Shown in pieces: positions 45,731 through 58,131 of a stretch of DNA of 64,000 nucleotides (positions within the stretch are counted from its first letter, which is position 1; each line of letters opens with the position of its first letter). The DNA comes from Gemmatimonadaceae bacterium. GTDB taxonomy: Bacteria > Gemmatimonadota > Gemmatimonadetes > Gemmatimonadales > Gemmatimonadaceae. The stretch is from positions 864,001 to 928,000 of the forward strand of contig JBHYGA010000001.1 of the NCBI GenBank assembly GCA_051859245.1. Reading direction: 5' to 3'. The translations under genes and the position numbers were made by a program. Below the pieces are notes generated by a model. It was not told the DNA's origin. It ran no database searches and worked only from the letters and a program-made list of their open reading frames with translations.

Positions 45731-45846
45731 CAGGGCGACGTCAAGGTAGTCCCACGCTCAGCGCGGGACCAGCGGTCAGCGCAGACGGACGTGCGCAAGT
45801 CGTTGCGATCGCTTGCTCGCACGCTGACGTGCGGCGAGTTTTGAGG

Positions 45847-46641
45847 ATGGTACCACCAGTGATTTCCGGCCCGCCGGCGACCCCGGAACAGCGGGCCCAA
45901 TCGAGCGATGCCTCGCGTGACGCCGCCGCGGCTGCCGCAGCGGGCGAGGGGAAGCGCGCGTACGTGCAGCGCATGTTCAGTGAGATCGCACCGCGCTACG
46001 ATCTGCTGAATCATGTGCTGTCCCTGAACATTGATCGCGCCTGGCGTCGGAAGGCCTTGCGCGCTCTGGCGTGGGATCGGGCGCCCAACGGGTTCTATCT
46101 CGACCTGTGCGCTGGCACGCTCGACGTTGGTGCCATGCTGATTAAACAGACCGGTTTCGGCGGACGCGTGATCGGGGCCGACTTCGCCGTGCCGATGCTG
46201 CGACACGGCGCTGGCAAGGCACCCGCAGATCGACTCACGCCGGTGGGTGCCGACGCGCTGGCGTTGCCCGTGGCGGATCGGGCGCTCGATGGAGCGATTG
46301 TGGCCTTTGGGATTCGCAACGTGGCGGATCTCGATGCCGGACTGCGCGAAGTGCGTCGTGTGCTCAAACCGGGTGCACGGTTTGTGATTCTGGAGTTCAG
46401 TACGCCGCCGTCGCGTCTGGTGCGCGCTGGATATCACGCCTATTTCCACCACGTGTTGCCTGCAGTGGGTCGCATGGTGAGCGGACACGGTTCGGCGTAC
46501 ACGTACTTGCCGATGTCAGTGGCGCATTTTCCCACGGAACAATCGCTGGCCGACCGCATGTTGAAGGCCGGATTCCGCGATGTGTCGTGGCAGCGCGTAA
46601 GCTTTGGAATCGCGGCGATTCACGTTGGCGTTGCTCCGTGA
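45847..46641 (+). CDS. ubiE: Demethylmenaquinone methyltransferase (MenG/UbiE)
   Basis: MFSEIAPRYDLLNHVLS, LDLCAGT, AFGIRNV, RVLKPG, AYTYLP. Confidence 0.92.
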   Translation: MVPPVISGPPATPEQRAQSSDASRDAAAAAAAGEGKRAYVQRMFSEIAPRYDLLNHVLSLNIDRAWRRKALRALAWDRAPNGFYLDLCAGTLDVGAMLIKQTGFGGRVIGADFAVPMLRHGAGKAPADRLTPVGADALALPVADRALDGAIVAFGIRNVADLDAGLREVRRVLKPGARFVILEFSTPPSRLVRAGYHAYFHHVLPAVGRMVSGHGSAYTYLPMSVAHFPTEQSLADRMLKAGFRDVSWQRVSFGIAAIHVGVAP

Positions 46642-46677
46642 GTTGGCGTGTGTGTGTGTCTTCAACCCAGTGTTGAC

Positions 46678-48183
46678 GTGTCACTCGATACTCTGTCGGA
46701 ATTTATTGCGGCCATCGACAAGGCCGGTGAGTTGCATCGCATCACACATCCGGTGCGCGTTCATCTTGAACTGTGTGAGATTGCGGATCGTGTGATGAAG
46801 CTGCCGGGCGGTGGGCCGGCGCTGCTCTTTGAGCATCCCGTGCTGCGCGACGGGACGCGATCGGCGATGCCCGTGGCCATCAATCTGTTCGGTTCGATGC
46901 GACGCATGTCGCTCGCGCTTGGCGTTGACGATCTCGACATCGTTGGCAATCGCATCACGCAACTGCTCGATCTCAAGGTGCCCGACGGATTGTTCGCGAA
47001 GCTCGGACTCGTCTCGCGGTTGTTCGAAGTGAGCAAGTTTCCGCCGCGCACCAGCAGCAGCGGAACACCCGCGTGTCAGGAAATTGTGTGGCGCGGCGAC
47101 GAAGTCGATCTCGACAAGCTACCGATCATTACCTGTTGGCCGGAGGACGGTGGACCATACGTGACGCTCACGATGGTCATCTCCAAAGATCCGGCGCGCG
47201 GCATTCGCAACGTGGGGATGTATCGCGTACAGCAGCTTGGCAAACGTGACGTGGCCATGCACTGGCAGCGGCACAAAACGGGCGCTGAACATTTGCGCGT
47301 CATGGCTGAGCGTGGCGAAAAAATGCCCGTGTGCATTGCCGTTGGCGCGGATCCGGCCAGCATGTACAGTGCGTCCGCGCCGCTGCCGCCTATGATTGAC
47401 GAGTTCATCTTCGCCGGATTTTTGCGCAAGTCACCCGTGAAGCTGGTCAAGGCCGTGACGTGCGATCTCGAAGTGCCGGCCGATGCAGACCTTGTGATCG
47501 AAGGCTACATCGATCCGGCCGAAGCACTGGTTATGGAAGGGCCATTTGGTGATCACACGGGATATTACAGCGAAGCCGATCTGTATCCGCGTGTGCACGT
47601 GACGGCGGTAACGATGCGCAAGCAGGCCACGTACGCCACCACGATTGTGGGCAAGCCGCCCATGGAAGACTTCTATCTCGGACACGCCACCGAGCGCATC
47701 TTCTTGCCGCTGCTCAAACTCACGTGTCCGGAGATCGTGGACTACCACATGCCGGCTGAAGGTGGATTTCACAATCTTGTGTTTGTGTCCATCGACAAGC
47801 GATATCCTGGGCATGCAGACAAGGTGATGCACGCACTCTGGGGCGCGGGGCTCATGTCGCTGGCGAAAGTGCTCGTGGTACTGGATCACGATGTAAATGT
47901 GCGCAACACGACCGAAGCCTGGTGGGCGGCGCTCAATAACATGGATCCGGATCGTGATACGCGATTTACGATGGGTCCGGTTGACGTGCTGGATCACGCG
48001 AGTCGTGCTTTCACGTATGGCAGCAAGATGGGAATTGACGCCACGCGCAAATGGACTGAAGAAGGCGCCACGCGTCCGTGGCCGAAAATGATCTCCATGG
48101 ACGAGACCACGAAAACGAGTGTTGACGCCATGTGGAGCAAGCTCGGTCTGCCGGCGATCGGCGCGAAGGCTGGATCGAGGTGA
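46678..48183 (+). CDS. ubiD: UbiD-family prFMN-dependent decarboxylase (menaquinone biosynthesis type)
   Basis: EDGGPY, RNVGMYR, MHWQRHK, EGPFGDHTGYY, KMGIDAT. Confidence 0.92.
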   Translation: MSLDTLSEFIAAIDKAGELHRITHPVRVHLELCEIADRVMKLPGGGPALLFEHPVLRDGTRSAMPVAINLFGSMRRMSLALGVDDLDIVGNRITQLLDLKVPDGLFAKLGLVSRLFEVSKFPPRTSSSGTPACQEIVWRGDEVDLDKLPIITCWPEDGGPYVTLTMVISKDPARGIRNVGMYRVQQLGKRDVAMHWQRHKTGAEHLRVMAERGEKMPVCIAVGADPASMYSASAPLPPMIDEFIFAGFLRKSPVKLVKAVTCDLEVPADADLVIEGYIDPAEALVMEGPFGDHTGYYSEADLYPRVHVTAVTMRKQATYATTIVGKPPMEDFYLGHATERIFLPLLKLTCPEIVDYHMPAEGGFHNLVFVSIDKRYPGHADKVMHALWGAGLMSLAKVLVVLDHDVNVRNTTEAWWAALNNMDPDRDTRFTMGPVDVLDHASRAFTYGSKMGIDATRKWTEEGATRPWPKMISMDETTKTSVDAMWSKLGLPAIGAKAGSR

Positions 48184-49163
48184 GCACACCCGCTGGAGTT
48201 CCGCTTCCGCCGGGCGCGCGCGACGGTCAGACGTTTGACGGTACCTCATTACCGGTGCGGCTGGCCAACTTTGTGAAGCTGCCACACACGGTGTTCGGTT
48301 TGCCGTTTGCGCTCGTGGGGGTGTGCTTTGCGAGCGCCGTGGTCGCACCGACGTGGAGCGTGATTGGATGGGTGCTCGTCGCGTTTACCGCAGCACGCTT
48401 CGCCGGCATGGGATTCAATCGCATTGTGGACCGCGATGTGGACGCGATCAATCCGCGTACGGCGATGCGTGAGATTCCACGCGGCGCGCTGACTGTGGCG
48501 CAGGCCACAACTGCGGTCGGTGTGATGAGCGTGCTCTTTGTGGTTGCGTCCTGGCAACTGAACACACTGTGTTTGTGGCTTTCGCCAGTCGCACTGCTGT
48601 GGGTGCTGGGGTACAGCTACACCAAACGCTTCACACGCTGGTCGCATTTGTGGCTCGGCCTCGGCTTGAGCATTTCACCAGTGGGCGGGTACCTCGCGGT
48701 GACCGGCGCGTGGAGTGATCCGTGGTGGCTCTTGTGCGCGCTCTCGCTGGCCGTGGTCACATGGACTGGTGGTTTTGATATTCTGTACGCGTTGCAGGAC
48801 GCGGAGTTTGATCGACGTCAGGGGCTGCATTCGTTGCCGTCGGCGATTGGTGTGTCGAATGCCATCACGGTGGCACGCACGCTGCACGTACTCACAGTGG
48901 TGTGTCTCGCCGTGGTGGTTGCAGCCGATCCGCTGCAGCTAAGCGGCCGCGATGGCGCGGAGTTCGCACAGGCCACGTTGCGGGTAGGCGTGGTACTCGC
49001 CGCGCTGCTGCTGGTGTGGGAACATCGCCTGGTCAAAGCGGACGATCTCAACAAGCTCGACGCCGCGTTCTTTACGATGAACGGAATCATCTCGATGGTG
49101 TTTTTTGTGTGCGTATTGGCGGCCACTTTGATGGGTCGCGGCCTCATACCGGTGCTCACATGA
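48180..49163 (+). CDS. ubiA: UbiA-like polyprenyltransferase (MqnP-like)
   Basis: KLPHTVFGLPFA, NRIVDRDVDAINPRT, YSYTKRF, GFDILYALQD, AFFTMNG. Confidence 0.88.
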   Translation: MSTPAGVPLPPGARDGQTFDGTSLPVRLANFVKLPHTVFGLPFALVGVCFASAVVAPTWSVIGWVLVAFTAARFAGMGFNRIVDRDVDAINPRTAMREIPRGALTVAQATTAVGVMSVLFVVASWQLNTLCLWLSPVALLWVLGYSYTKRFTRWSHLWLGLGLSISPVGGYLAVTGAWSDPWWLLCALSLAVVTWTGGFDILYALQDAEFDRRQGLHSLPSAIGVSNAITVARTLHVLTVVCLAVVVAADPLQLSGRDGAEFAQATLRVGVVLAALLLVWEHRLVKADDLNKLDAAFFTMNGIISMVFFVCVLAATLMGRGLIPVLT

Positions 49164-49762
49164 GCGCGCGATTGCCGGTGGTGCTGGCGATCACGGGGGC
49201 GAGCGGCGCGCCGTACGCGGTGCGATTGCTTGAGGCACTCGTACAGTTGCAGGTGCCGACCTGGCTCATTGTCTCGTCGCACGGGTGGCGGCTGCTGGAA
49301 ACCGAATCGGGAATCTCCAATCTCGATGCGCTGCGCATTTTTGTCGGCGTCGATGCATTCAACGCGCACGTCACTGTTTTTGATGACAATGATCGTGGTG
49401 CGAAGCCTGCCTCCGGCTCGGCGCGCACGTCTGGAATGGTTGTTTGCCCTTGCAGCATGGGCACCGTCAGTGCGATTGCGCACGGTACGTCACGCTCGCT
49501 GGTGGAGCGCGCTGCGGATGTGACGCTGAAAGAGCGTCGACGTTTGTTGCTGGTCCCTCGGGAGACGCCGCTGTCGCTCGTGCATTTGGAAAACATGATC
49601 GCGGTGACGCGTGCCGGAGCGATTGTGCTCCCGGCGGCACCGGGGTTTTACCATCAACCGCAGCAGATCAACGAGCTCGTCGATTTCATTGTGGCCCGAA
49701 TTCTGGACCAGCTGGAAATTGAACACTCGATCGGTCGTCGCTGGGGAGCCCCAATCGAATGA
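49160..49762 (+). CDS. ubiX: Flavin prenyltransferase
   Basis: AITGASG, ASGS, PCSMGT, RAADVTLKERR, PRETP. Confidence 0.95.
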   Translation: MSARLPVVLAITGASGAPYAVRLLEALVQLQVPTWLIVSSHGWRLLETESGISNLDALRIFVGVDAFNAHVTVFDDNDRGAKPASGSARTSGMVVCPCSMGTVSAIAHGTSRSLVERAADVTLKERRRLLLVPRETPLSLVHLENMIAVTRAGAIVLPAAPGFYHQPQQINELVDFIVARILDQLEIEHSIGRRWGAPIE

Positions 49763-50269: not shown

Positions 50270-51418
50270 TTACAAGAGCTCGCGAACCGTTGGCGCCGTT
50301 CGCGAGCTCTCTTCCGCACGCGTACGAAACCAGTGCTCAAGCAACGTCAGCTCTTCCAGTGCATCAACGGTGAGCGCCGTGGCGGTTGATACGGGGCGCG
50401 CCTCGAGCGCGAGCAACTGGTCGATGCCGTCGAAATCGCGCACCGCCGACTCGCCGATCACGCGCCCGTCGCGAATGAGGTAGAGGCGATCGTTACCGCC
50501 GGCGCCGGGCACTCGATACGCGAAGGATGGTCGCTGCAGTGCTTCACGCACTCGCGCGAGCTGGGCGTTGAGTGTTTCGAGTGCCGCAAGTCGGTCTCGC
50601 AACCAGCCGGCGCGCTCGTACGAAAGTTGTGCACTGGCCACTGCCATATCGCGTTCGAGCGCTTCTTGCGGTTCATCGCTCGTGCCACGCAAGAACGCCT
50701 GCGCGCGAGTGAGCTGAACATGATATTCCGCGTGCGTGCAGGCCGCGACGCACGGCCCAAGGCAGCGTTTGGTTTCGTACCGGTGACACGATGGCGTGCG
50801 CGCGTACGCGGCATCATCCGCAAAAAAATCGCCACTGTCGCGCAATACCATGGGCACGCGATCGGCGCAGTCGCGCAATCCGAGGGCGTCGTTGAGTACG
50901 CGCACCGCTGACACGAGCGGTGTGCGGTGCGCGAAGGGACCAATCACGGTGCTGGCAGCGCCGCCGCGCGACGAGGCAACCACGCTGGCCCGCTGTACGC
51001 GCAGTCGCGGGACGGCCCCTCGAGGAATCACGATCACCCACCATTTATCCAATGGCCGGGCGCCACGCCGATTGTATTCTGGCAGATGCGCACGAATGAG
51101 ACGTGTTTCCCGCAGCAGCGCCGCAAACTCGTTGGGCGACGATTCCCATTCAATATGCGCCGTTTCCCTGAGCATACGGGCGTGACGATGTTCGGGCCAC
51201 GGCAGCCGAAAGTATGACAGGAGTCGCGTTCGGAGTTGGCGCGACTTGCCAACATACAACACGTTGCCGCGGGCGCCGAGCATGCGATACACGCCGGGGA
51301 CATTCTTTGCGTCTCGGCGAACCAGCTCGCGCAGGGGCGACGCATCGAGCCGCGGCGGGGCCTCAAGAAACGAAAACTGAAGCGCGGCCGGCTTCTGGTT
51401 GAACGCGTGTCCGAACAT
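50270..51418 (-). CDS. GIY-YIG excinuclease resembling the UvrC N-terminal half (Cho-like)
   Basis: PGVYRM...LYVGKS..LRTRLLSYF, PEYNR, four-Cys cluster (LRDC...SCHRYETKRCLGPC), UVR coiled coil; no RNase H or HhH domain. Confidence 0.85.
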   Translation of the reverse strand: MFGHAFNQKPAALQFSFLEAPPRLDASPLRELVRRDAKNVPGVYRMLGARGNVLYVGKSRQLRTRLLSYFRLPWPEHRHARMLRETAHIEWESSPNEFAALLRETRLIRAHLPEYNRRGARPLDKWWVIVIPRGAVPRLRVQRASVVASSRGGAASTVIGPFAHRTPLVSAVRVLNDALGLRDCADRVPMVLRDSGDFFADDAAYARTPSCHRYETKRCLGPCVAACTHAEYHVQLTRAQAFLRGTSDEPQEALERDMAVASAQLSYERAGWLRDRLAALETLNAQLARVREALQRPSFAYRVPGAGGNDRLYLIRDGRVIGESAVRDFDGIDQLLALEARPVSTATALTVDALEELTLLEHWFRTRAEESSRTAPTVRELL

Positions 51419-51575: not shown

Positions 51576-52694
51576 ATGGTTCGATCACGAACTCCTCAAC
51601 AGATCCACTCACGCATGATCCTGTCGTCTGGAATCGAAGCGCGTCAAGAACTCGCGGCAGAGCTTGCACGCTCAAGCCGCAAGCCGCAGACCGTCGTGCA
51701 ACTCGCGGCGGTCGGGGCGTACCTGCCCGAGCGTGTGCAAACGTCGCGTGACGTCGAGCAACAAATCGCGGCATCGAGCCCCGGCTTTCGTGTGCGCCCG
51801 GGTATCATCGCGGCGCGCACCGGCATTCACGCGCGCCGAGTGGCTGAGGAACACGAGCAATGCAGCGATCTCGCGGTGGCTGCGGCTCGGCGTGCGTTGA
51901 GCTCAGCGGGACTTGAGGCACACGATGTGGACCTGCTGATTTTTGCCGCGGCGAGTCAGGACCTGATTGAGCCGGCGACCGCGCACATTGTGCAGCACAA
52001 GCTGGGTACGAACTGTCAGGTGCTCGACGTGAAAAATGCGTGCAACTCATTCCTGAACGGCGTGCAGGTTGCCGAGTCGCTGGTACAAACCGGCGCCGCG
52101 CAACGTGCGCTGGTGGTCACCGGCGAAATCTGTTCACGCGCCGTTCGCTGGACCGTGCGCAACGCAGACGAGTTTCGGGAGCATTTTCCCTGCTACACGA
52201 TGGGTGATGCCGGCGCGGCGGCGGTGCTCACCGCGTCTGACTCCGGTCGTGGTCTGCGCTACCGCAACTTCGCGGCGCGCAGTCATCATTGGCCACTCGC
52301 CACGATCCCGTACGGCGGCTCCATGCACCCGCGTGGTGACGAGTTTGCGTATCTCAAGGGCGACGGTCCCGCGCTGAAAGACGCATTCGTGGCGGAGGGT
52401 CCATCGATCTTGCACGAGATGCTGCGCGATGCGCAGATCGGCTTTGACGATGTCGACCACATCTTTGTGCATCAGGTTGGCGTGCCGTATCACGCGGAGA
52501 TGTTGGCGGCCACCGGCATCCCCGCGCACAAAGTGCGCGGCACTGTTTCAGACTTTGGTAACATGGCCTCGGCCACGATTCCCGTGGCGCATGCAATGGC
52601 CGTGGCCGACGGAACGGTACGCGCGGGTGATCGGGTGATGTGGCTGGGCATGGCGAGTGGCATCAGTGTGGCGCTGTTCATTATCGACGTATGA
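51576..52694 (+). CDS. OleA-like condensing enzyme (thiolase/KAS III superfamily); start uncertain
   Basis: QDLIEPATA (OleA-type Glu-Pro), NACNSF (catalytic Cys), HQV, GNMASA. Confidence 0.85.
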   Translation: MVRSRTPQQIHSRMILSSGIEARQELAAELARSSRKPQTVVQLAAVGAYLPERVQTSRDVEQQIAASSPGFRVRPGIIAARTGIHARRVAEEHEQCSDLAVAAARRALSSAGLEAHDVDLLIFAAASQDLIEPATAHIVQHKLGTNCQVLDVKNACNSFLNGVQVAESLVQTGAAQRALVVTGEICSRAVRWTVRNADEFREHFPCYTMGDAGAAAVLTASDSGRGLRYRNFAARSHHWPLATIPYGGSMHPRGDEFAYLKGDGPALKDAFVAEGPSILHEMLRDAQIGFDDVDHIFVHQVGVPYHAEMLAATGIPAHKVRGTVSDFGNMASATIPVAHAMAVADGTVRAGDRVMWLGMASGISVALFIIDV

Positions 52695-53455
52695 CCGCGC
52701 GCATGACCGATCGCTTTGCCGTCGTGGTACCATGCTTTCAGGAAGAGCGCGGGGTGGAGCACACATTGCGTGCGCTCGCCGCACAAACGGATACCGCCTT
52801 CACGCTCGTGTTCGTGGACAATGGCAGCACTGATCGGTCAGTCGAGATTGTGCGTGCGTTTGCGAATGCGCACGCACCGTTTGCGGTGGAGATACTGCAC
52901 GAGCCGGAAAAGGGAACCGGCGCCGCCTCGGATACGGGCTTTCGTTTTGCGATTGCGAGCGGCGCCGCCTGCATTGCACGAACGGATGCCGACTGCCTGC
53001 CCGCTCCGGACTGGATTGCCAAAATCAAGCAGGCACTCCGCAGCGATGGACTCGAGTTTGTTGCCGGTCGTATCGCGCCGCGGCAGGACGAAGGCTTGTC
53101 ACTGCGCGAACGTTTTGTGTTGCCCCTGATGATTGCGCTCGCGGAACGCTATGGCCGTTATGCAAGGCGGGGACCGCAGTTCAAGTATCCCTACTTCATG
53201 GCGGCCGGCAACAACCTGGCGATTACTGCCGATCTCTACGAGCGGGCGGGGGGCTTTCCGCGCACCGCGATCGAAATCGCACATGAAGATCGTGAGCTGT
53301 CAGAGCGTGTTCGTCAACTCACGCATCGCGCGGAGGTGCGCCGCGACATTCTGGTGTATAACTCTGTGCGACGCGTGCGTGCCTACGGATTTGTGAACGT
53401 GCTCCGATGGTATCGCAATCACGGATACCGTCCTGCTGTGGTTGATGTGCGATGA
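52691..53455 (+). CDS. Glycosyltransferase family 2
   Basis: VVVPCFQE, VDNGSTD, TDADC (DxD), GGF, HED, SVRR. Confidence 0.9.
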   Translation: MTARMTDRFAVVVPCFQEERGVEHTLRALAAQTDTAFTLVFVDNGSTDRSVEIVRAFANAHAPFAVEILHEPEKGTGAASDTGFRFAIASGAACIARTDADCLPAPDWIAKIKQALRSDGLEFVAGRIAPRQDEGLSLRERFVLPLMIALAERYGRYARRGPQFKYPYFMAAGNNLAITADLYERAGGFPRTAIEIAHEDRELSERVRQLTHRAEVRRDILVYNSVRRVRAYGFVNVLRWYRNHGYRPAVVDVR

Positions 53456-54675
53456 CGAGCGCGTCTGGTCGGCGTATTGCGTGGCAGGATATGCGCGTGA
53501 ATCTCGCCGCGCACCCGTTCGCGTGGCCAGCGGCGCGTGCGCTGCGCAATCTTGGCGCTGTGGTCCGCGTACCTGGCGTGGGCGTTGTGGTGAACAGTGC
53601 GCTGCTGGCACATGAGGTGCTCTCGCAGGATCGTACGTTTGTAAAGCAAGGGCCCGGTTCAATCGCTGATGCCTTCACCAGGGCGTTCGGACCGAGTGCG
53701 CTCGCCAACATGGACGGCAACAGTCATCGTGAACTGCGGCAGCGATTGGGGCCGCTCGCCAGTAGTGGTCAGGCAGACGCGTGGCTGTCGAGCGCACGCG
53801 CTCCCTTCGAACGCGCGGTGGCGGCGCTCGCGCGCGGTGAGACGGTGGATCTGTCACGCACATCCCGCGAGCTGTCCGGGCGCCTCACCCTCACACTGAT
53901 GGGTGCCATCCCCGACACGCTGGACGCCACCCAGGAAGACGAACTCGATCGTGCGTCCCGCGAGGTGCACGCGCTCGGTGAACGGATCTCGTCATCGTTG
54001 CAGTTGAACGATCTCGCGAGCTCTGTCAGTCCACGCGTTAAAGCAGATCTCAAGCGACTGTTGGCGTATGCCAATGATGCGTTCGCGCGCAATGATCTGC
54101 CGCCGGCGTCACTTGTGGCACGTCTGAAGGCACTCGGGTGCGACGCCGAAGAGACACGTGGTATTCTTTCCATCTTCTTTGTTGCCGGAGCGCTCACGCT
54201 CGGCGTGGCGCTGCCACGTATTGCGGCGCTGCTTATCGAGTCAGGGCAGCTGGACCGCTTACGCAATGATCCGTCGGCCGTTGCGCGCGCCGTTGACGAA
54301 GGGCTGCGATATACCTGTCCCGTGCCAGCCACCATGCGCATCGCGGCGCAAGACGCGGATGTGGGTTCGCTCCGCGTGCGAAAGGGCGAGAGGCTGTTGA
54401 TTCTCACCGCGAATATGTCACGTGACGCCGAGCTGTTTCCGAATCCGGATCGCTTCGACGTGTCGCGCCAGCACGATCCACGCGCGCGTTATCTGTGGTA
54501 CGGGGCGGGACCGCACTTCTGTCTTGGCTTCACACTCGCGCAGCGCACGTTGCAGTATGCTGTGACCGCGCTGGCGGACGTGCCCGGAGCGTTGCGTGTG
54601 GTCCAGCGGCGCTCTGCTCGCGGGGTGCTATTGCCGGCGTGGCTGGAGTTGCACGTGGCGCAGCGACATCCATGA
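53452..54675 (+). CDS. Cytochrome P450
   Basis: EGLR (ExxR), FPNPDRFD, heme ligand YGAGPHFCLG; I-helix VAGALT. Confidence 0.92.
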   Translation: MTSASGRRIAWQDMRVNLAAHPFAWPAARALRNLGAVVRVPGVGVVVNSALLAHEVLSQDRTFVKQGPGSIADAFTRAFGPSALANMDGNSHRELRQRLGPLASSGQADAWLSSARAPFERAVAALARGETVDLSRTSRELSGRLTLTLMGAIPDTLDATQEDELDRASREVHALGERISSSLQLNDLASSVSPRVKADLKRLLAYANDAFARNDLPPASLVARLKALGCDAEETRGILSIFFVAGALTLGVALPRIAALLIESGQLDRLRNDPSAVARAVDEGLRYTCPVPATMRIAAQDADVGSLRVRKGERLLILTANMSRDAELFPNPDRFDVSRQHDPRARYLWYGAGPHFCLGFTLAQRTLQYAVTALADVPGALRVVQRRSARGVLLPAWLELHVAQRHP

Positions 54676-56339
54676 GCACGCTCCGCGCCGAACGCACGGA
54701 AGCTTTCGCTTCCGGCGACGAAGCCGCAGATCCGATGACGCCACCGCTGTCGCGCATCGCGCACCAGGCGCGGCGAGATCCACACGCTGTGGCAATCGTG
54801 GAGGTCAACGGCGAACGCGAACTGCGTCGCATTAGCCGTAGCCGTCTCGTAGAGCGTGTGATGCATGTGGCGCGTGGTTTACGCGCGTGCGGCTTTCGAG
54901 CGGGTGATCGCGTGCTCTTCTCTGTGCGCCCGGGCATTGATGCGGTTGTTCTGGTGCTTGCCGTGCACTCCCTTGGTGGTGTGCTGATACCGCAGGATCC
55001 GGGAACCGCAGACGCACTCTTCACGGCGCGCGCTGAACTGCTGCAGCCGCGCTGGGTCATGGCGGAGAGTTTGTTGCTGGTGTCTCCAAGAAGCGTTGTG
55101 TCACGCGTGCTGCGCTGGCGCAACGTAAACCTGGCTCCGCTCGGCGCGGTTCAGGGCGCGCAGCTCGTGCGAACAGGGCCGTGGTTACCAGGCCTTCCGA
55201 AAGCCAAAACACTCGGCGCCATTGAACGCACAGGGCGCCGTGTAACTGCGCTCTCGCACGCGCCGCTGAGTGAGCGCGAAGCCCAGCCTCTGCGCGGATC
55301 ACGCGATGTGTTCACGGAATCGGCCGAGGCGTTCATTGTGTGCACGTCGGGCACCACGAGCGCACCAAAGGCTGTCGTGCACACGCGTGCCTCGCTCCTC
55401 GCAATTCTCCGGGCTACTGAGCGAGAGCTGGCGATGGATTCGTCTCACGTGGTGTACAGCAAGGAGCTGCACCTCGTACTGCCGGCGCTCTCGGTTGGCG
55501 CTCGCGTGCTTATGCCGCGCAATCTTGCATTTGACGGAGCGCGAACGCTTCAAGCCTTTGCAGCGCACCGCGCAACGCACGCGTTTCTAGTCACACGCGA
55601 TTGTCGGGTATTGCTCGATACATGTCTCGCGCAGGCCACGAAGATTCCCGACTCGTTGCAGTCGTTGATGATCGGTGCGGCTCCGGTACGCTCTGCATTT
55701 CTGGCGCGGCTGCGTGAGGTGTTGCCGGCACGCTGCGTGGCGTGGTGCGTATACGGCGCGACTGAGGTGCTGCCGATTGCCCGCGTCTCGCTGGAAGAGA
55801 AGGTTGCGTGGTCAGGCCAGGGCGATTTGGTGGGACGCGCGATTCCCGGTGTGAGTGTGCGCGTTGGCAATGATGGACAGTTACATGTCAAGGGCGAGCG
55901 ATTGTGCGCGGGCTATGTTGGCGCCGAGCCAATGCAGGAATACGCGACCGGTGATCTGGCACGCATGGATGGTGAAGGCATTGTGCTGCTCGGTCGAGCG
56001 AAGGACATGTTGATTCGCGGTGATTACAACATCTATCCCGAACTGTACGAGCCACTGGTCGAGCGCATCGCTGGTGTGCGGCGCGCCGCCATGATCGGTG
56101 ACTTTGACGCGGTGAATGCCGACGAACGTGTGATTCTGGTGGTGGAGCCAGAGCGGGGCACTGATGCCGTCGCGCTTCGTGAGCGCGTGGCAAAAGAGGT
56201 GCGCACGGGTCCGAATCGCCTCGATTCCACCGCGCTACCAGACGAGATCATCGTGCGTTCTCTGCCGGAGTCTGGCCGCTCCAACAAGATTGACAAGGTG
56301 GCGCTACGCCAAGCGGTCGGTGCTCGGTCGTGCGCGTAG
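54672..56339 (+). CDS. Adenylate-forming enzyme (ANL superfamily), OleC-like by context
   Basis: CTSGTTSAPKAV, YGATE, ATGD, LLGRAKDM, terminal SNKIDK. Confidence 0.88.
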   Translation: MSTLRAERTEAFASGDEAADPMTPPLSRIAHQARRDPHAVAIVEVNGERELRRISRSRLVERVMHVARGLRACGFRAGDRVLFSVRPGIDAVVLVLAVHSLGGVLIPQDPGTADALFTARAELLQPRWVMAESLLLVSPRSVVSRVLRWRNVNLAPLGAVQGAQLVRTGPWLPGLPKAKTLGAIERTGRRVTALSHAPLSEREAQPLRGSRDVFTESAEAFIVCTSGTTSAPKAVVHTRASLLAILRATERELAMDSSHVVYSKELHLVLPALSVGARVLMPRNLAFDGARTLQAFAAHRATHAFLVTRDCRVLLDTCLAQATKIPDSLQSLMIGAAPVRSAFLARLREVLPARCVAWCVYGATEVLPIARVSLEEKVAWSGQGDLVGRAIPGVSVRVGNDGQLHVKGERLCAGYVGAEPMQEYATGDLARMDGEGIVLLGRAKDMLIRGDYNIYPELYEPLVERIAGVRRAAMIGDFDAVNADERVILVVEPERGTDAVALRERVAKEVRTGPNRLDSTALPDEIIVRSLPESGRSNKIDKVALRQAVGARSCA

Positions 56340-57217
56340 CCGTTACTGGTGCGAGTGGTTTCATTGGCGGGCGTGTGGCGCGAACGCTGCAGGCGCGTGG
56401 ATATGAAGTGCAGTCGTTTGGCCGGCGTGACGCAGCGCATCTTGAGCACCCGCTGCCGAACTATCAGCGCTGGGACCTTGCGCATGGTCCGTATGCACTC
56501 GGCGACATGGACGCCGTGGTGCATTGTGCCGCGCACGTGGCTCAGTGGGGAGGCCAGCACGAATTCGAGATGGTGAACGTGCGTGGTACCGAACATGTAG
56601 TCGAGAGTATGCCAGCTGCGGCGCGCATGGTGTATGTGAGCTCCGGCAGCGTTCATCACACCACGCAACCGGACAGCCTGCCACCCTACGCGCGGACTAA
56701 GCAGCGCGGTGAAGCGATTGCACTCAGTCGCGCTGCGAAAGCAGTGGTGTTGCGACCACACATCGTGTATGGTCCCGGCGATACCACGCTCTGGCCACGT
56801 GTTCGCGACGCACGGCGAGGCACGCGACTGCTGGTGCCGGGCAACGGGCAGAATTGTGTGGCTGTCACGCACGTGGACAATCTCGTACACGCTGTAGAAC
56901 GGGCGCTGCATGCGTCGAGTCCCGCCGGCGTGTACAACATCGCGGATGAAACGGCGCCACGCGTGCACGACTTGCTGACCACCATGTTCGCACGCTACAA
57001 CGAACCGGTCGAAATCACGTACATCCCTCGGCCGGTCGCGTGGACCGCGGCGCTGGCACTCGAAGCCGCCTGGACCGTGCTGCAACGCCAGTCGGACCCG
57101 CCGCTTACACGGTATGTGGTGCAAAGTCTGGCCGATCCGTTTCCGCTTGATATCAGCGCCGCCAAAGCTGTGCTGCAGTATGCGCCGCACTACACGTACC
57201 GTGATGGGCCACTGTAA
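56330..57217 (+). CDS. NAD(P)-dependent extended SDR (3-beta-HSD/OleD-like)
   Basis: TGASGFIG, HCAA, YARTK (YxxxK), LRPHIVYGPGD. Confidence 0.88.
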   Translation: MRVAVTGASGFIGGRVARTLQARGYEVQSFGRRDAAHLEHPLPNYQRWDLAHGPYALGDMDAVVHCAAHVAQWGGQHEFEMVNVRGTEHVVESMPAAARMVYVSSGSVHHTTQPDSLPPYARTKQRGEAIALSRAAKAVVLRPHIVYGPGDTTLWPRVRDARRGTRLLVPGNGQNCVAVTHVDNLVHAVERALHASSPAGVYNIADETAPRVHDLLTTMFARYNEPVEITYIPRPVAWTAALALEAAWTVLQRQSDPPLTRYVVQSLADPFPLDISAAKAVLQYAPHYTYRDGPL

Positions 57218-57222
57218 CTGAT

Positions 57223-58131
57223 CTACCGCTGGCAGTTCGCGCAGAACACGGTGTTGCGTCCATCAATGGCGTGTGTCGCAATCAAACGTTTGCCGCAGCG
57301 AGCACACGGTGCGCCTTCTCGCCCGTACGCCAGCAGCTGTCGTACAAAGTCTCCGCGCTCTCCACTCGCATCCCGATAATCACGAAAGCTGGTACCACGC
57401 GCTGCGATGCTTGCCGTCAGGATCTGGCGCAGCGTGCTGTGCAACCGCAGCCATTCGTGTGCTTCCAACGAACGCGTTTCACGCGACGGATCAATCTGTG
57501 CGGCCCACAGTGCTTCTGTGGCGTAGATGTTCCCCACGCCAGCCAATCGGTGCTGATCCATGAGCGCCGCCTTGATCACGCGCGTGGAGTCACCGAGCGC
57601 GGCGCGAAGATCCGCAGCAGTAAAATCTGCGTCGAGTGGTTCGGGACCGAGAGCGCGTTCGTACTCGGCAAATCGCGCCCGATCCATCCACGATACGGTG
57701 CCCAGTCGCCGTACATCACGGTAGTGCAGGGCGCGACCGTCGTGCAGCGTGAAGGTGACGGTGAGATAGTCGGCGAGACCTTCAGGAAGTGTGCCGTCGT
57801 CGACCAACAGCGAGCCGGTAAACCGCGGTTGCACCACGACGTGGCCGGCGAGCAGCAAATCGCTACCGGCGCCCGACGCTCCACCAGCACCTGACCGTCC
57901 GGCAACACCAGTCGCCGCAGCGCCATCTCGTCCAGCCAGATCAAGCACGATCAACTTGGCGCGTCGCCACACGGCGGCAATCGTGCAGTCGCTGACGTGT
58001 TGCGCCAACTCGCGAACCGTCGCGCCGCGCAAAACATCCTCGCGCTCCACGTGTACGCCGCGAACACTCGCCCCGCGTACCCGTGCTTGCAGATCGCGCG
58101 CAATTGTTTCCGTTTCCGGCAACTCCGGCAT
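57223..58131 (-). CDS. mutM: Formamidopyrimidine-DNA glycosylase
   Basis: MPELPE, H2TH motif AGVGNIYATEAL, zinc finger CARC...CANCQ. Confidence 0.95.
   Translation of the reverse strand: MPELPETETIARDLQARVRGASVRGVHVEREDVLRGATVRELAQHVSDCTIAAVWRRAKLIVLDLAGRDGAAATGVAGRSGAGGASGAGSDLLLAGHVVVQPRFTGSLLVDDGTLPEGLADYLTVTFTLHDGRALHYRDVRRLGTVSWMDRARFAEYERALGPEPLDADFTAADLRAALGDSTRVIKAALMDQHRLAGVGNIYATEALWAAQIDPSRETRSLEAHEWLRLHSTLRQILTASIAARGTSFRDYRDASGERGDFVRQLLAYGREGAPCARCGKRLIATHAIDGRNTVFCANCQR

Follow-up and report, generated by a model that had tools for sequence, protein, structure and literature searches.

The question raised by this locus is what might be made by five tightly packed genes that resemble an olefin (ole) biosynthetic cluster without oleB. 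The genes occupy positions 51,576 to 57,217 of a 64,000-nucleotide stretch of DNA from a Gemmatimonadaceae bacterium (referred to hereafter as the window; positions 864,001 to 928,000 of contig JBHYGA010000001.1, assembly GCA_051859245.1), and encode a condensing enzyme of the 3-ketoacyl-acyl carrier protein synthase III type (KAS III, or KAS), a family 2 glycosyltransferase (GT2), a cytochrome P450, an adenylate-forming enzyme (ANL) and a short-chain dehydrogenase/reductase (SDR). The preferred answer, to which a probability of about 0.45 is assigned, is that this self-contained cassette directs the synthesis of an oxidised, glycosylated dialkyl beta-lactone lipid; that the product is a head-to-head lipid appears likely from the sequence comparisons described below. 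The genes are as follows.

51576..52694, plus strand: KAS III / thiolase-fold condensing enzyme, OleA-type (Pfam PF08541/PF08545; likely start ATG 51615)
52691..53455, plus strand: GT2 glycosyltransferase with DXD motif (RTDADC) (PF00535, 85 bits)
53452..54675, plus strand: cytochrome P450 (PF00067)
54672..56339, plus strand: adenylate-forming enzyme (ANL), from the sister clade of the OleC beta-lactone synthetases (PF00501)
56330..57217, plus strand: extended SDR, OleD-like ketoreductase (Pfam Epimerase; best NCBIfam match OleD NF042422)

All five proteins matched their Pfam families (ACP_syn_III/III_C, Glycos_transf_2, p450, AMP-binding and Epimerase) above the curated cut-offs, and their open reading frames (ORFs) fill the 51576-57217 stretch entirely, with ATGA overlaps at three junctions and a 10-nt overlap between the ANL and SDR genes. 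The first-pass annotation of this DNA, which had described five overlapping genes of these families unaccompanied by an acyl carrier protein (ACP), alpha/beta hydrolase, regulator or transporter, was correct on both counts, none of the latter four kinds of protein having come up in a family-model search of the five cassette ORFs. The KAS probably starts at ATG 51615 rather than at 51576, a database protein of 359 amino acids beginning there. Scans of the cassette for promoters (0 promoter-like sites against 1.2 expected) and terminators (3 terminator-like sites against 4.9 expected) were uninformative. Since eight of 11 related Gemmatimonadota loci retrieved via the P450 retain all five genes in the same order (the other three start within the P450), the arrangement is a genuine operon as opposed to a chance one; the named relatives among these loci are Gemmatimonadaceae or Gemmatimonas assemblies.

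The limits of the operon are set by two genes outside the cassette.

50270..51418, minus strand: uvrC-like GIY-YIG/UVR nuclease, left boundary (domain matches)
57223..58131, minus strand: fpg/mutM DNA glycosylase, right boundary (TIGR00577 above cut-off)

In other genera of the family fpg adjoins the uvrC-like gene directly at 25 of 26 loci, the contig ending at the 26th, a count that takes in the unpublished genome G021 (omitting it gives 24 of 25). Of the five cassette-free genomes in the same genus, three have the empty site, another carries different DNA at this place and the last reaches a contig end. Given that fpg and the uvrC-like gene are neighbours in relatives without the cassette, the five genes are therefore a single unit inserted in the purD-fpg-uvrC-like run. 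Within the genus the KAS was detected in 7 of 15 genomes, including five of the six near-complete ones. When 401 genomes sampled from the phylum were searched for the ANL, with three candidates scored in each, two were found to have it, the present genome being one of them. Composition gave no sign of recent transfer, the G+C content across the cassette (0.63) being like that of the rest of the window. The uvrC-like protein is itself short (382 amino acids, GIY-YIG plus UVR) and follows purD-fpg across the family; here its gene is parted from fpg by the cassette, and two further paralogues occur in the genome. In one relative, approximately 1.5 kb of extra DNA (L017:11702-13268; L-numbers denote homologous loci) separates the SDR gene from fpg.

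The case for head-to-head condensation begins with the KAS. Residues E132, C156, H299 and N329 (counted from 51576) align with E117/C143/H285/N315 of OleA, and the protein carries IEPATA and VHQVG motifs as opposed to the PSTA/HQAN type of FabH, which confirms the OleA-type EP.TA and HQV motifs noted at first pass. The DLIEPATA segment that contains E132 aligns with DYLEPSTA of PDB entries 3row/3s21, which we take to be Xanthomonas campestris OleA. Entry 4ku3, which stands in the same list of PDB matches, is named as OleA in the sections of PMC8180931 that deal with this enzyme, where the general-base Glu is described as needed for Claisen activity. The printed motif, [LIVYF]-E-P-X-X-[VIL], is departed from at its last position by the KAS, and likewise by the 3row/3s21 reference. 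All 28 rows of the KAS clade have the OleA-type Glu, which the three other KAS III proteins of the genome lack. As resolved in a FastTree tree, the clade also contains the KAS from two actinobacterial loci, L046 and L049, in which homologues of oleB, oleC and oleD occur. Additionally, an OleA-like insertion precedes the T(M/L)G motif. The best NCBIfam model was PRK09258, presumably linked to OleA, at 202 bits against a cut-off of 285; an oleB-linked actinobacterial KAS scores only 141.6, indicating that this model does not cover the family. One KAS III elsewhere in the genome (G000 C1:1195166-1197846) lacks the OleA Glu, is directly followed by an AMP-binding enzyme and is unrelated to the cassette.

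The reductase and the adenylate-forming enzyme were examined in the same manner. The SDR has a TGASGFIG Rossmann motif (TGxxGxxG) and an S104, Y120xxxK124 triad (motif table of 74 rows), and OleD (NF042422) was the best of 17 families at 160.7 bits, short of the cut-off of 580; its description as OleD-like was thus upheld. The ANL has motifs A3, A5, A7 and A10 (Lys539). As set out in the passages of PMC8388817 that define it, the A8 motif reads Rx(D/K)x6G and contacts the pantetheine tunnel. In the window enzyme R442 and K444 are kept and the glycine position is occupied by Asp451; this glycine is present in only 2 of 30 rows of the clade to which the enzyme belongs, against 14 of 14 outgroup rows (three shifted by one residue), and in 16 of 94 matched rows from a set of 105 single-domain representatives. 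Loss of the A8 glycine impairs use of coenzyme A (CoA). The A8 region had at one point been taken as CoA-ligase-like, a view dropped once the glycine was counted.

In a tree of 53 rows, drawn from loci with near-full-length matches, the 30-row ANL clade (SH-aLRT 100) is sister to nine OleC-type rows (99) and stands apart from the 14 other rows, which comprise acyl-CoA ligase-like and non-ribosomal peptide synthetase sequences. The segment after A4 is 16 residues long in every row of the clade (30 of 30) and of OleC (9 of 9), compared with 22-24 residues in 14 of 14 others; the use of this deletion as an OleC marker derives from the present analysis. Hence the phylogenetic check proposed at first pass, made here against OleC-type rows, gave a divided result: OleC is the nearest relative and the enzyme does not group with ordinary acyl-CoA ligases, but it lies outside OleC and fails the OleC models. 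It is probably not a CoA ligase; it may work most like OleC, but the tests applied place it outside that family.

The P450 retains the heme ligand (Cys357), E283xxR286 and the I-helix Thr249, with Leu248 replacing the usual acid; over 46 rows this position is Leu in 21 (the window enzyme included), Glu in 15, Asn in nine and Val in one. Its structural model (predicted local distance difference test score, pLDDT, of 84) has a P450 fold, the best solved matches being generic P450s of 18-25% identity, none of them close, and two other P450s are encoded in the genome. Glycosyltransferase-activating P450s lack the heme Cys; such a role was considered here and rejected on account of Cys357 and a TIGR04515 score of 76.9 against 343. 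In the GT2, D99/D101 are kept in at least 93% of 37 rows.

With regard to OleB, none is encoded in the cassette, as had been noted at the outset, nor in any of 71 metagenome loci of the ANL clade, many of which are short, whereas oleB was found in 6 of 8 loci of the OleC class. OleB belongs to the haloalkane dehalogenase family. Among 35 alpha/beta-hydrolase matches in the genome the closest to OleB is an unlinked haloalkane-dehalogenase-like hydrolase (G000 C4:920238-921125; PRK03204, 195.7 bits), which is encoded on a different contig, after a regulator-like ORF. It occurs in four of seven genomes with the cassette and in five without it, among 41 searched, and since this distribution does not track the cassette the hydrolase is not tied to it. 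A distant oleB that yields plain olefins was the circumstance under which the original proposal was to be abandoned; a dehalogenase-like hydrolase that might conceivably fill this role does exist in the genome, but it scores below the held-out OleB rows and its distribution does not follow that of the cassette.

The wider family was surveyed next, using the best 80 of 112 metagenome loci, of which 71 have an ANL of the cassette clade, eight one of the OleC class and one neither; all five genes are present in 18 of the 80. Both a KAS and an ANL are present in 41 clade loci; an oxidase was identified in 35 of these, this being a P450 in 25, an AurF-like protein in nine and a fatty-acid hydroxylase in one, while the contigs of the remaining six begin inside the KAS match or at most 400 bases from it. 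Because the oxidase is kept though swapped between these three types, oxidation seems to belong to the core of the pathway and glycosylation to be dispensable. The AurF-KAS-ANL-SDR variant (L090, L100, L106-L109, L112, L113 and L118) is of low G+C content and Bacteroidota-like by its neighbours, and has the AurF-like diiron oxygenase upstream of the KAS (Pfam-checked in five of nine); no match to the P450 or GT2 was found in these nine loci. A second low-G+C variant (L085, L089, L103 and L081) has an additional, ordinary ANL on the opposite strand, together with a phosphopantetheinyl transferase in L085, L089 and L081, and L085 also has a NAD-binding reductase and an alpha/beta hydrolase nearby. 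Genes for an MMPL transporter or a fatty-acid hydroxylase adjoin the SDR gene at L068:9465-11672, L109:9475-11040, L088:4438-5370 and L100:9448-10314, which fits a lipid product.

The reactions proposed for the cassette are predictions, set upon what was observed at the locus, namely which genes are present, how they are coupled, bounded and conserved, which catalytic residues they encode, to which clades they belong, and that no oleB is linked to them. The KAS would condense two acyl-CoAs head to head to give a 2-alkyl-3-oxo acid, as suggested by E132/C156/H299/N329, and the SDR would reduce this to the 2-alkyl-3-hydroxy acid. The ANL, judging by its kinship with OleC and the loss of the A8 glycine, may then adenylate the acid and close the beta-lactone without CoA. 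The P450 is envisaged to hydroxylate a chain with the aid of host redox partners, and the GT2 to add a sugar at the resulting hydroxyl. That a pathway can end at the lactone is indicated by the portion of 10.1101/856955 concerned with NltC, in which the oleB-less Nlt pathway was reconstituted in vitro. Of the product first suggested, an oxidised and glycosylated beta-lactone or beta-hydroxy acid, the OleA-type KAS, OleD-like SDR and OleC-related ANL are in accord; lactone formation, conversely, can be put forward only conditionally, since the ANL belongs to a distinct clade beside OleC and scores below the cut-offs of the OleC models, and the one such KAS assayed, from Actinoplanes, gave no Claisen product.

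Several findings weigh against the lactone pathway. The ANL scored 72.6 bits on the Xanthomonas OleC model NF045786 (cut-off 900) and 143.7 on PRK09274 (cut-off 478), the latter being the best of 88 families, compared with 403 and 441.5, respectively, for an oleB-linked actinobacterial OleC. It falls outside the OleC clade proper, in a tree that comes from a quick IQ-TREE run with no bootstrap and a midpoint root and in which the OleC references are oleB-linked genes, none of them biochemically tested. The A8 segment of its clade is unlike that of OleC, with K at the +2 position in 30 of 30 rows against 0 of 9 OleC rows, which have neither D nor K there. The KAS keeps a FabH-like flap that is missing in the Xanthomonas-type OleA rows, its two best PDB matches are FabH-type, and its PRK09258 score of 202 bits is short of the cut-off. 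At L070:1-7962 and L079:647-8503 an ANL of the cassette clade, the GT2 and the P450 are paired with a KAS III that lacks the OleA Glu; these two loci also encode an SDR, a metallo-beta-lactamase-fold protein and a major facilitator superfamily transporter. The I-helix acid is missing in 22 of 46 P450 rows, that of the window among them, and no redox partner is encoded within the cassette. Finally, the unlinked hydrolase scored 191 on an OleB profile built from six sequences, against 220-457 for held-out OleB rows.

Much of this evidence would suit a different fate for the acid, in which a mycolate-like 2-alkyl-3-hydroxy acid is passed by the ANL to a sugar hydroxyl, a P450-made hydroxyl or an amine, so that an envelope glycolipid with an ester or amide link results in place of the beta-lactone. 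The separate clade, the distinct A8 motif and the failure of the OleC models are all compatible with such a transfer, as is a fold search with the ANL model, which returned generic ANL matches headed by amide bond synthetases at 20-23% identity (a sequence search found no solved structure of OleC type). Furthermore, a reactive, sugar-bearing lactone fits poorly with a cassette that has no exporter or resistance gene here. However, OleC is still the nearest relative of the ANL and shares the post-A4 deletion with it, and because the nine AurF variants do without a GT2, a sugar cannot be the general acceptor. Ester or amide transfer is accordingly regarded as unlikely, but as the most serious competitor to lactone closure.

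A second alternative concerns the GT2, which might make a glycosyl ester on a carboxylate, the acceptor being either the beta-hydroxy acid or a terminal acid that the P450 generates through successive oxidations. CrtQ forms such an ester in staphyloxanthin synthesis. The nearest Atlas clusters of the window GT2 carry the name 4,4'-diaponeurosporenoate glycosyltransferase (scores 0.98-1.00), and GT2 and oxidase occur together across loci; yet these names are automatic and serve as a lead only, no NCBIfam glycosyltransferase model scores above its cut-off, and the solved relatives are remote (best E 7e-8), such that a glycosyl ester seems improbable.

Removal of the carboxyl carbon has also to be considered. 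The lactone might be an intermediate that is decarboxylated, spontaneously or by an unlinked hydrolase, giving a hydroxylated, glycosylated olefin. The dehalogenase-like hydrolase, which is 29% identical to the OleB homologue of L046, and the metallo-beta-lactamase-fold hydrolases of L070 and L079 could be invoked as catalysts, but the former scores below every held-out OleB, resides on another contig and does not track the cassette, and the olefin is judged distinctly improbable. P450 (OleT) and diiron (UndA) enzymes are capable of oxidative decarboxylation. Since oleB is missing clade-wide while a swapped oxidase is present, the oxidase slot might conceivably do the job of OleB, the carboxyl carbon being removed or rearranged oxidatively. 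This is an equally long shot; were it true, the cassettes would define an undescribed, widespread class of head-to-head glycolipids, and the OleC-sister enzymes a new ANL reaction class.

The beta-lactone lipid remains the preferred product, and counterparts of the cassette in Actinomycetota bear upon it. The five genes, in the order KAS-GT2-ANL-P450-SDR, are found on plasmid pKVP2 of Streptomyces viridifaciens DSM 40239 (L044; BOQ63_042930-042910) and in a Kitasatospora record, with identities to the window proteins of 42-43% for KAS (42% in L044), 49% for GT2, 32% for ANL and 36% for SDR. In BLAST comparisons the P450 of these cassettes is a distant match, but its profile alignment covers 363 columns with a score of 217, as against 282 columns and 144 for a generic P450. 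Counted by protein alone, the P450 of the Streptomyces/Kitasatospora cassettes had 852 matches among 8000 scored candidates, mostly Kitasatospora and Streptomyces among the 120 listed, and 893 matches were obtained with an Actinoplanes member, most of the named ones coming from Actinoplanes and Micromonospora. The cassette type thus appears common in Actinomycetota (Streptomyces, Kitasatospora, Actinoplanes and Micromonospora) and is present in several other lineages.

A region of this kind has been described in Actinoplanes atraurantiacus, comprising OleA, glycosyltransferase, OleC, P450 and OleD (Smith et al. 2020, Fig. 6; PMC7064751). In the passages of that paper devoted to the cluster, the genome is stated to lack oleB and the product is predicted, though not reported as isolated, to be a hydroxylated, glycosylated beta-lactone. 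The window likewise has the five protein kinds adjacent and no linked oleB, and the cassette is a new member of this published orphan cluster type, the gene set and the prediction being already in print. The first-pass annotation, which knew of no characterised product, was right to that extent, none having been found in a literature search that left most subscription journals outside its reach, but the novelty it implied was too high. The same search returned no report from Gemmatimonadota, and a search for expression data from Kitasatospora viridifaciens found nothing on the cluster.

The same passages of PMC7064751 provide a further finding to set against lactone synthesis: no condensation product was obtained when the A. 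atraurantiacus KAS was purified and supplied with C8-C16 acyl-CoAs, although the enzyme was active on p-nitrophenyl hexanoate in cells. The suggestion that the KAS is instead an acyltransferase, or a condenser of short or carrier-bound substrates that yields a different small acylated glycoside, could draw on this result, on the FabH-like flap and on the second ANL and phosphopantetheinyl transferase of L085 and L089, but is very improbable in view of the invariant OleA Glu, the insertion before T(M/L)G, the nesting with oleB/C/D-linked KAS, the OleC/OleD-like partners, and the fact that the negative assay used scarce, precipitating protein.

As regards its neighbourhood, the window also contains, at 45829-49762, a row of genes for a ubiE-like methyltransferase, UbiD, a UbiA-family prenyltransferase and a UbiX-like flavoprotein that looks like ordinary quinone biosynthesis. 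As a gene set the window copy of the cassette adds little, while extending the cluster type to Gemmatimonadota. In relatives the empty site delimits the insert to precisely five genes (5.6 kb), a clean unit for an expression construct, and the comparisons add two testable points, an OleC-sister ANL without the CoA-ligase glycine and an interchangeable oxidase. If the lactone pathway is correct, the cassette would encode a glycosylated beta-lactone lipid, and beta-lactones such as lipstatin are enzyme inhibitors.

Compared with known systems, the cassette stands closest to the A. atraurantiacus cluster, with which it has the five protein kinds, the lack of oleB and the predicted product in common. 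The stated gene order of that cluster is that of L044, through which homology to it is presumed, its own proteins not being among the 120 matches listed; the window cassette differs in having the P450 before the ANL, a Gemmatimonadota host, and Leu as opposed to the Asn of the A. atraurantiacus type at the P450 acid position. The ANL shares its fold and motifs A3, A5, A7 and A10 with class I acyl-CoA ligases, but lies outside their part of the tree, has the OleC-type deletion and lacks the A8 glycine. Similarity to the X. campestris OleABCD system is seen in the conserved OleA residues, the OleD model as best match for the SDR, and the OleC-type rows as sister to the ANL, whereas the cassette lacks oleB, its three Ole-like proteins do not reach the Ole cut-offs, the A8 motif is different, and a GT2 and a P450 are added. 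Finally, nocardiolactone (NltABCD) and lipstatin (LstABCD) biosynthesis, as outlined in the relevant portion of 10.1101/856955, resemble the route predicted here in leading from a Claisen condensation, through reduction by an SDR, to lactone closure that depends on ATP, with no OleB, but employ a heterodimeric thiolase pair where the window has a single KAS with Glu and triad, accompanied by the GT2 and P450.

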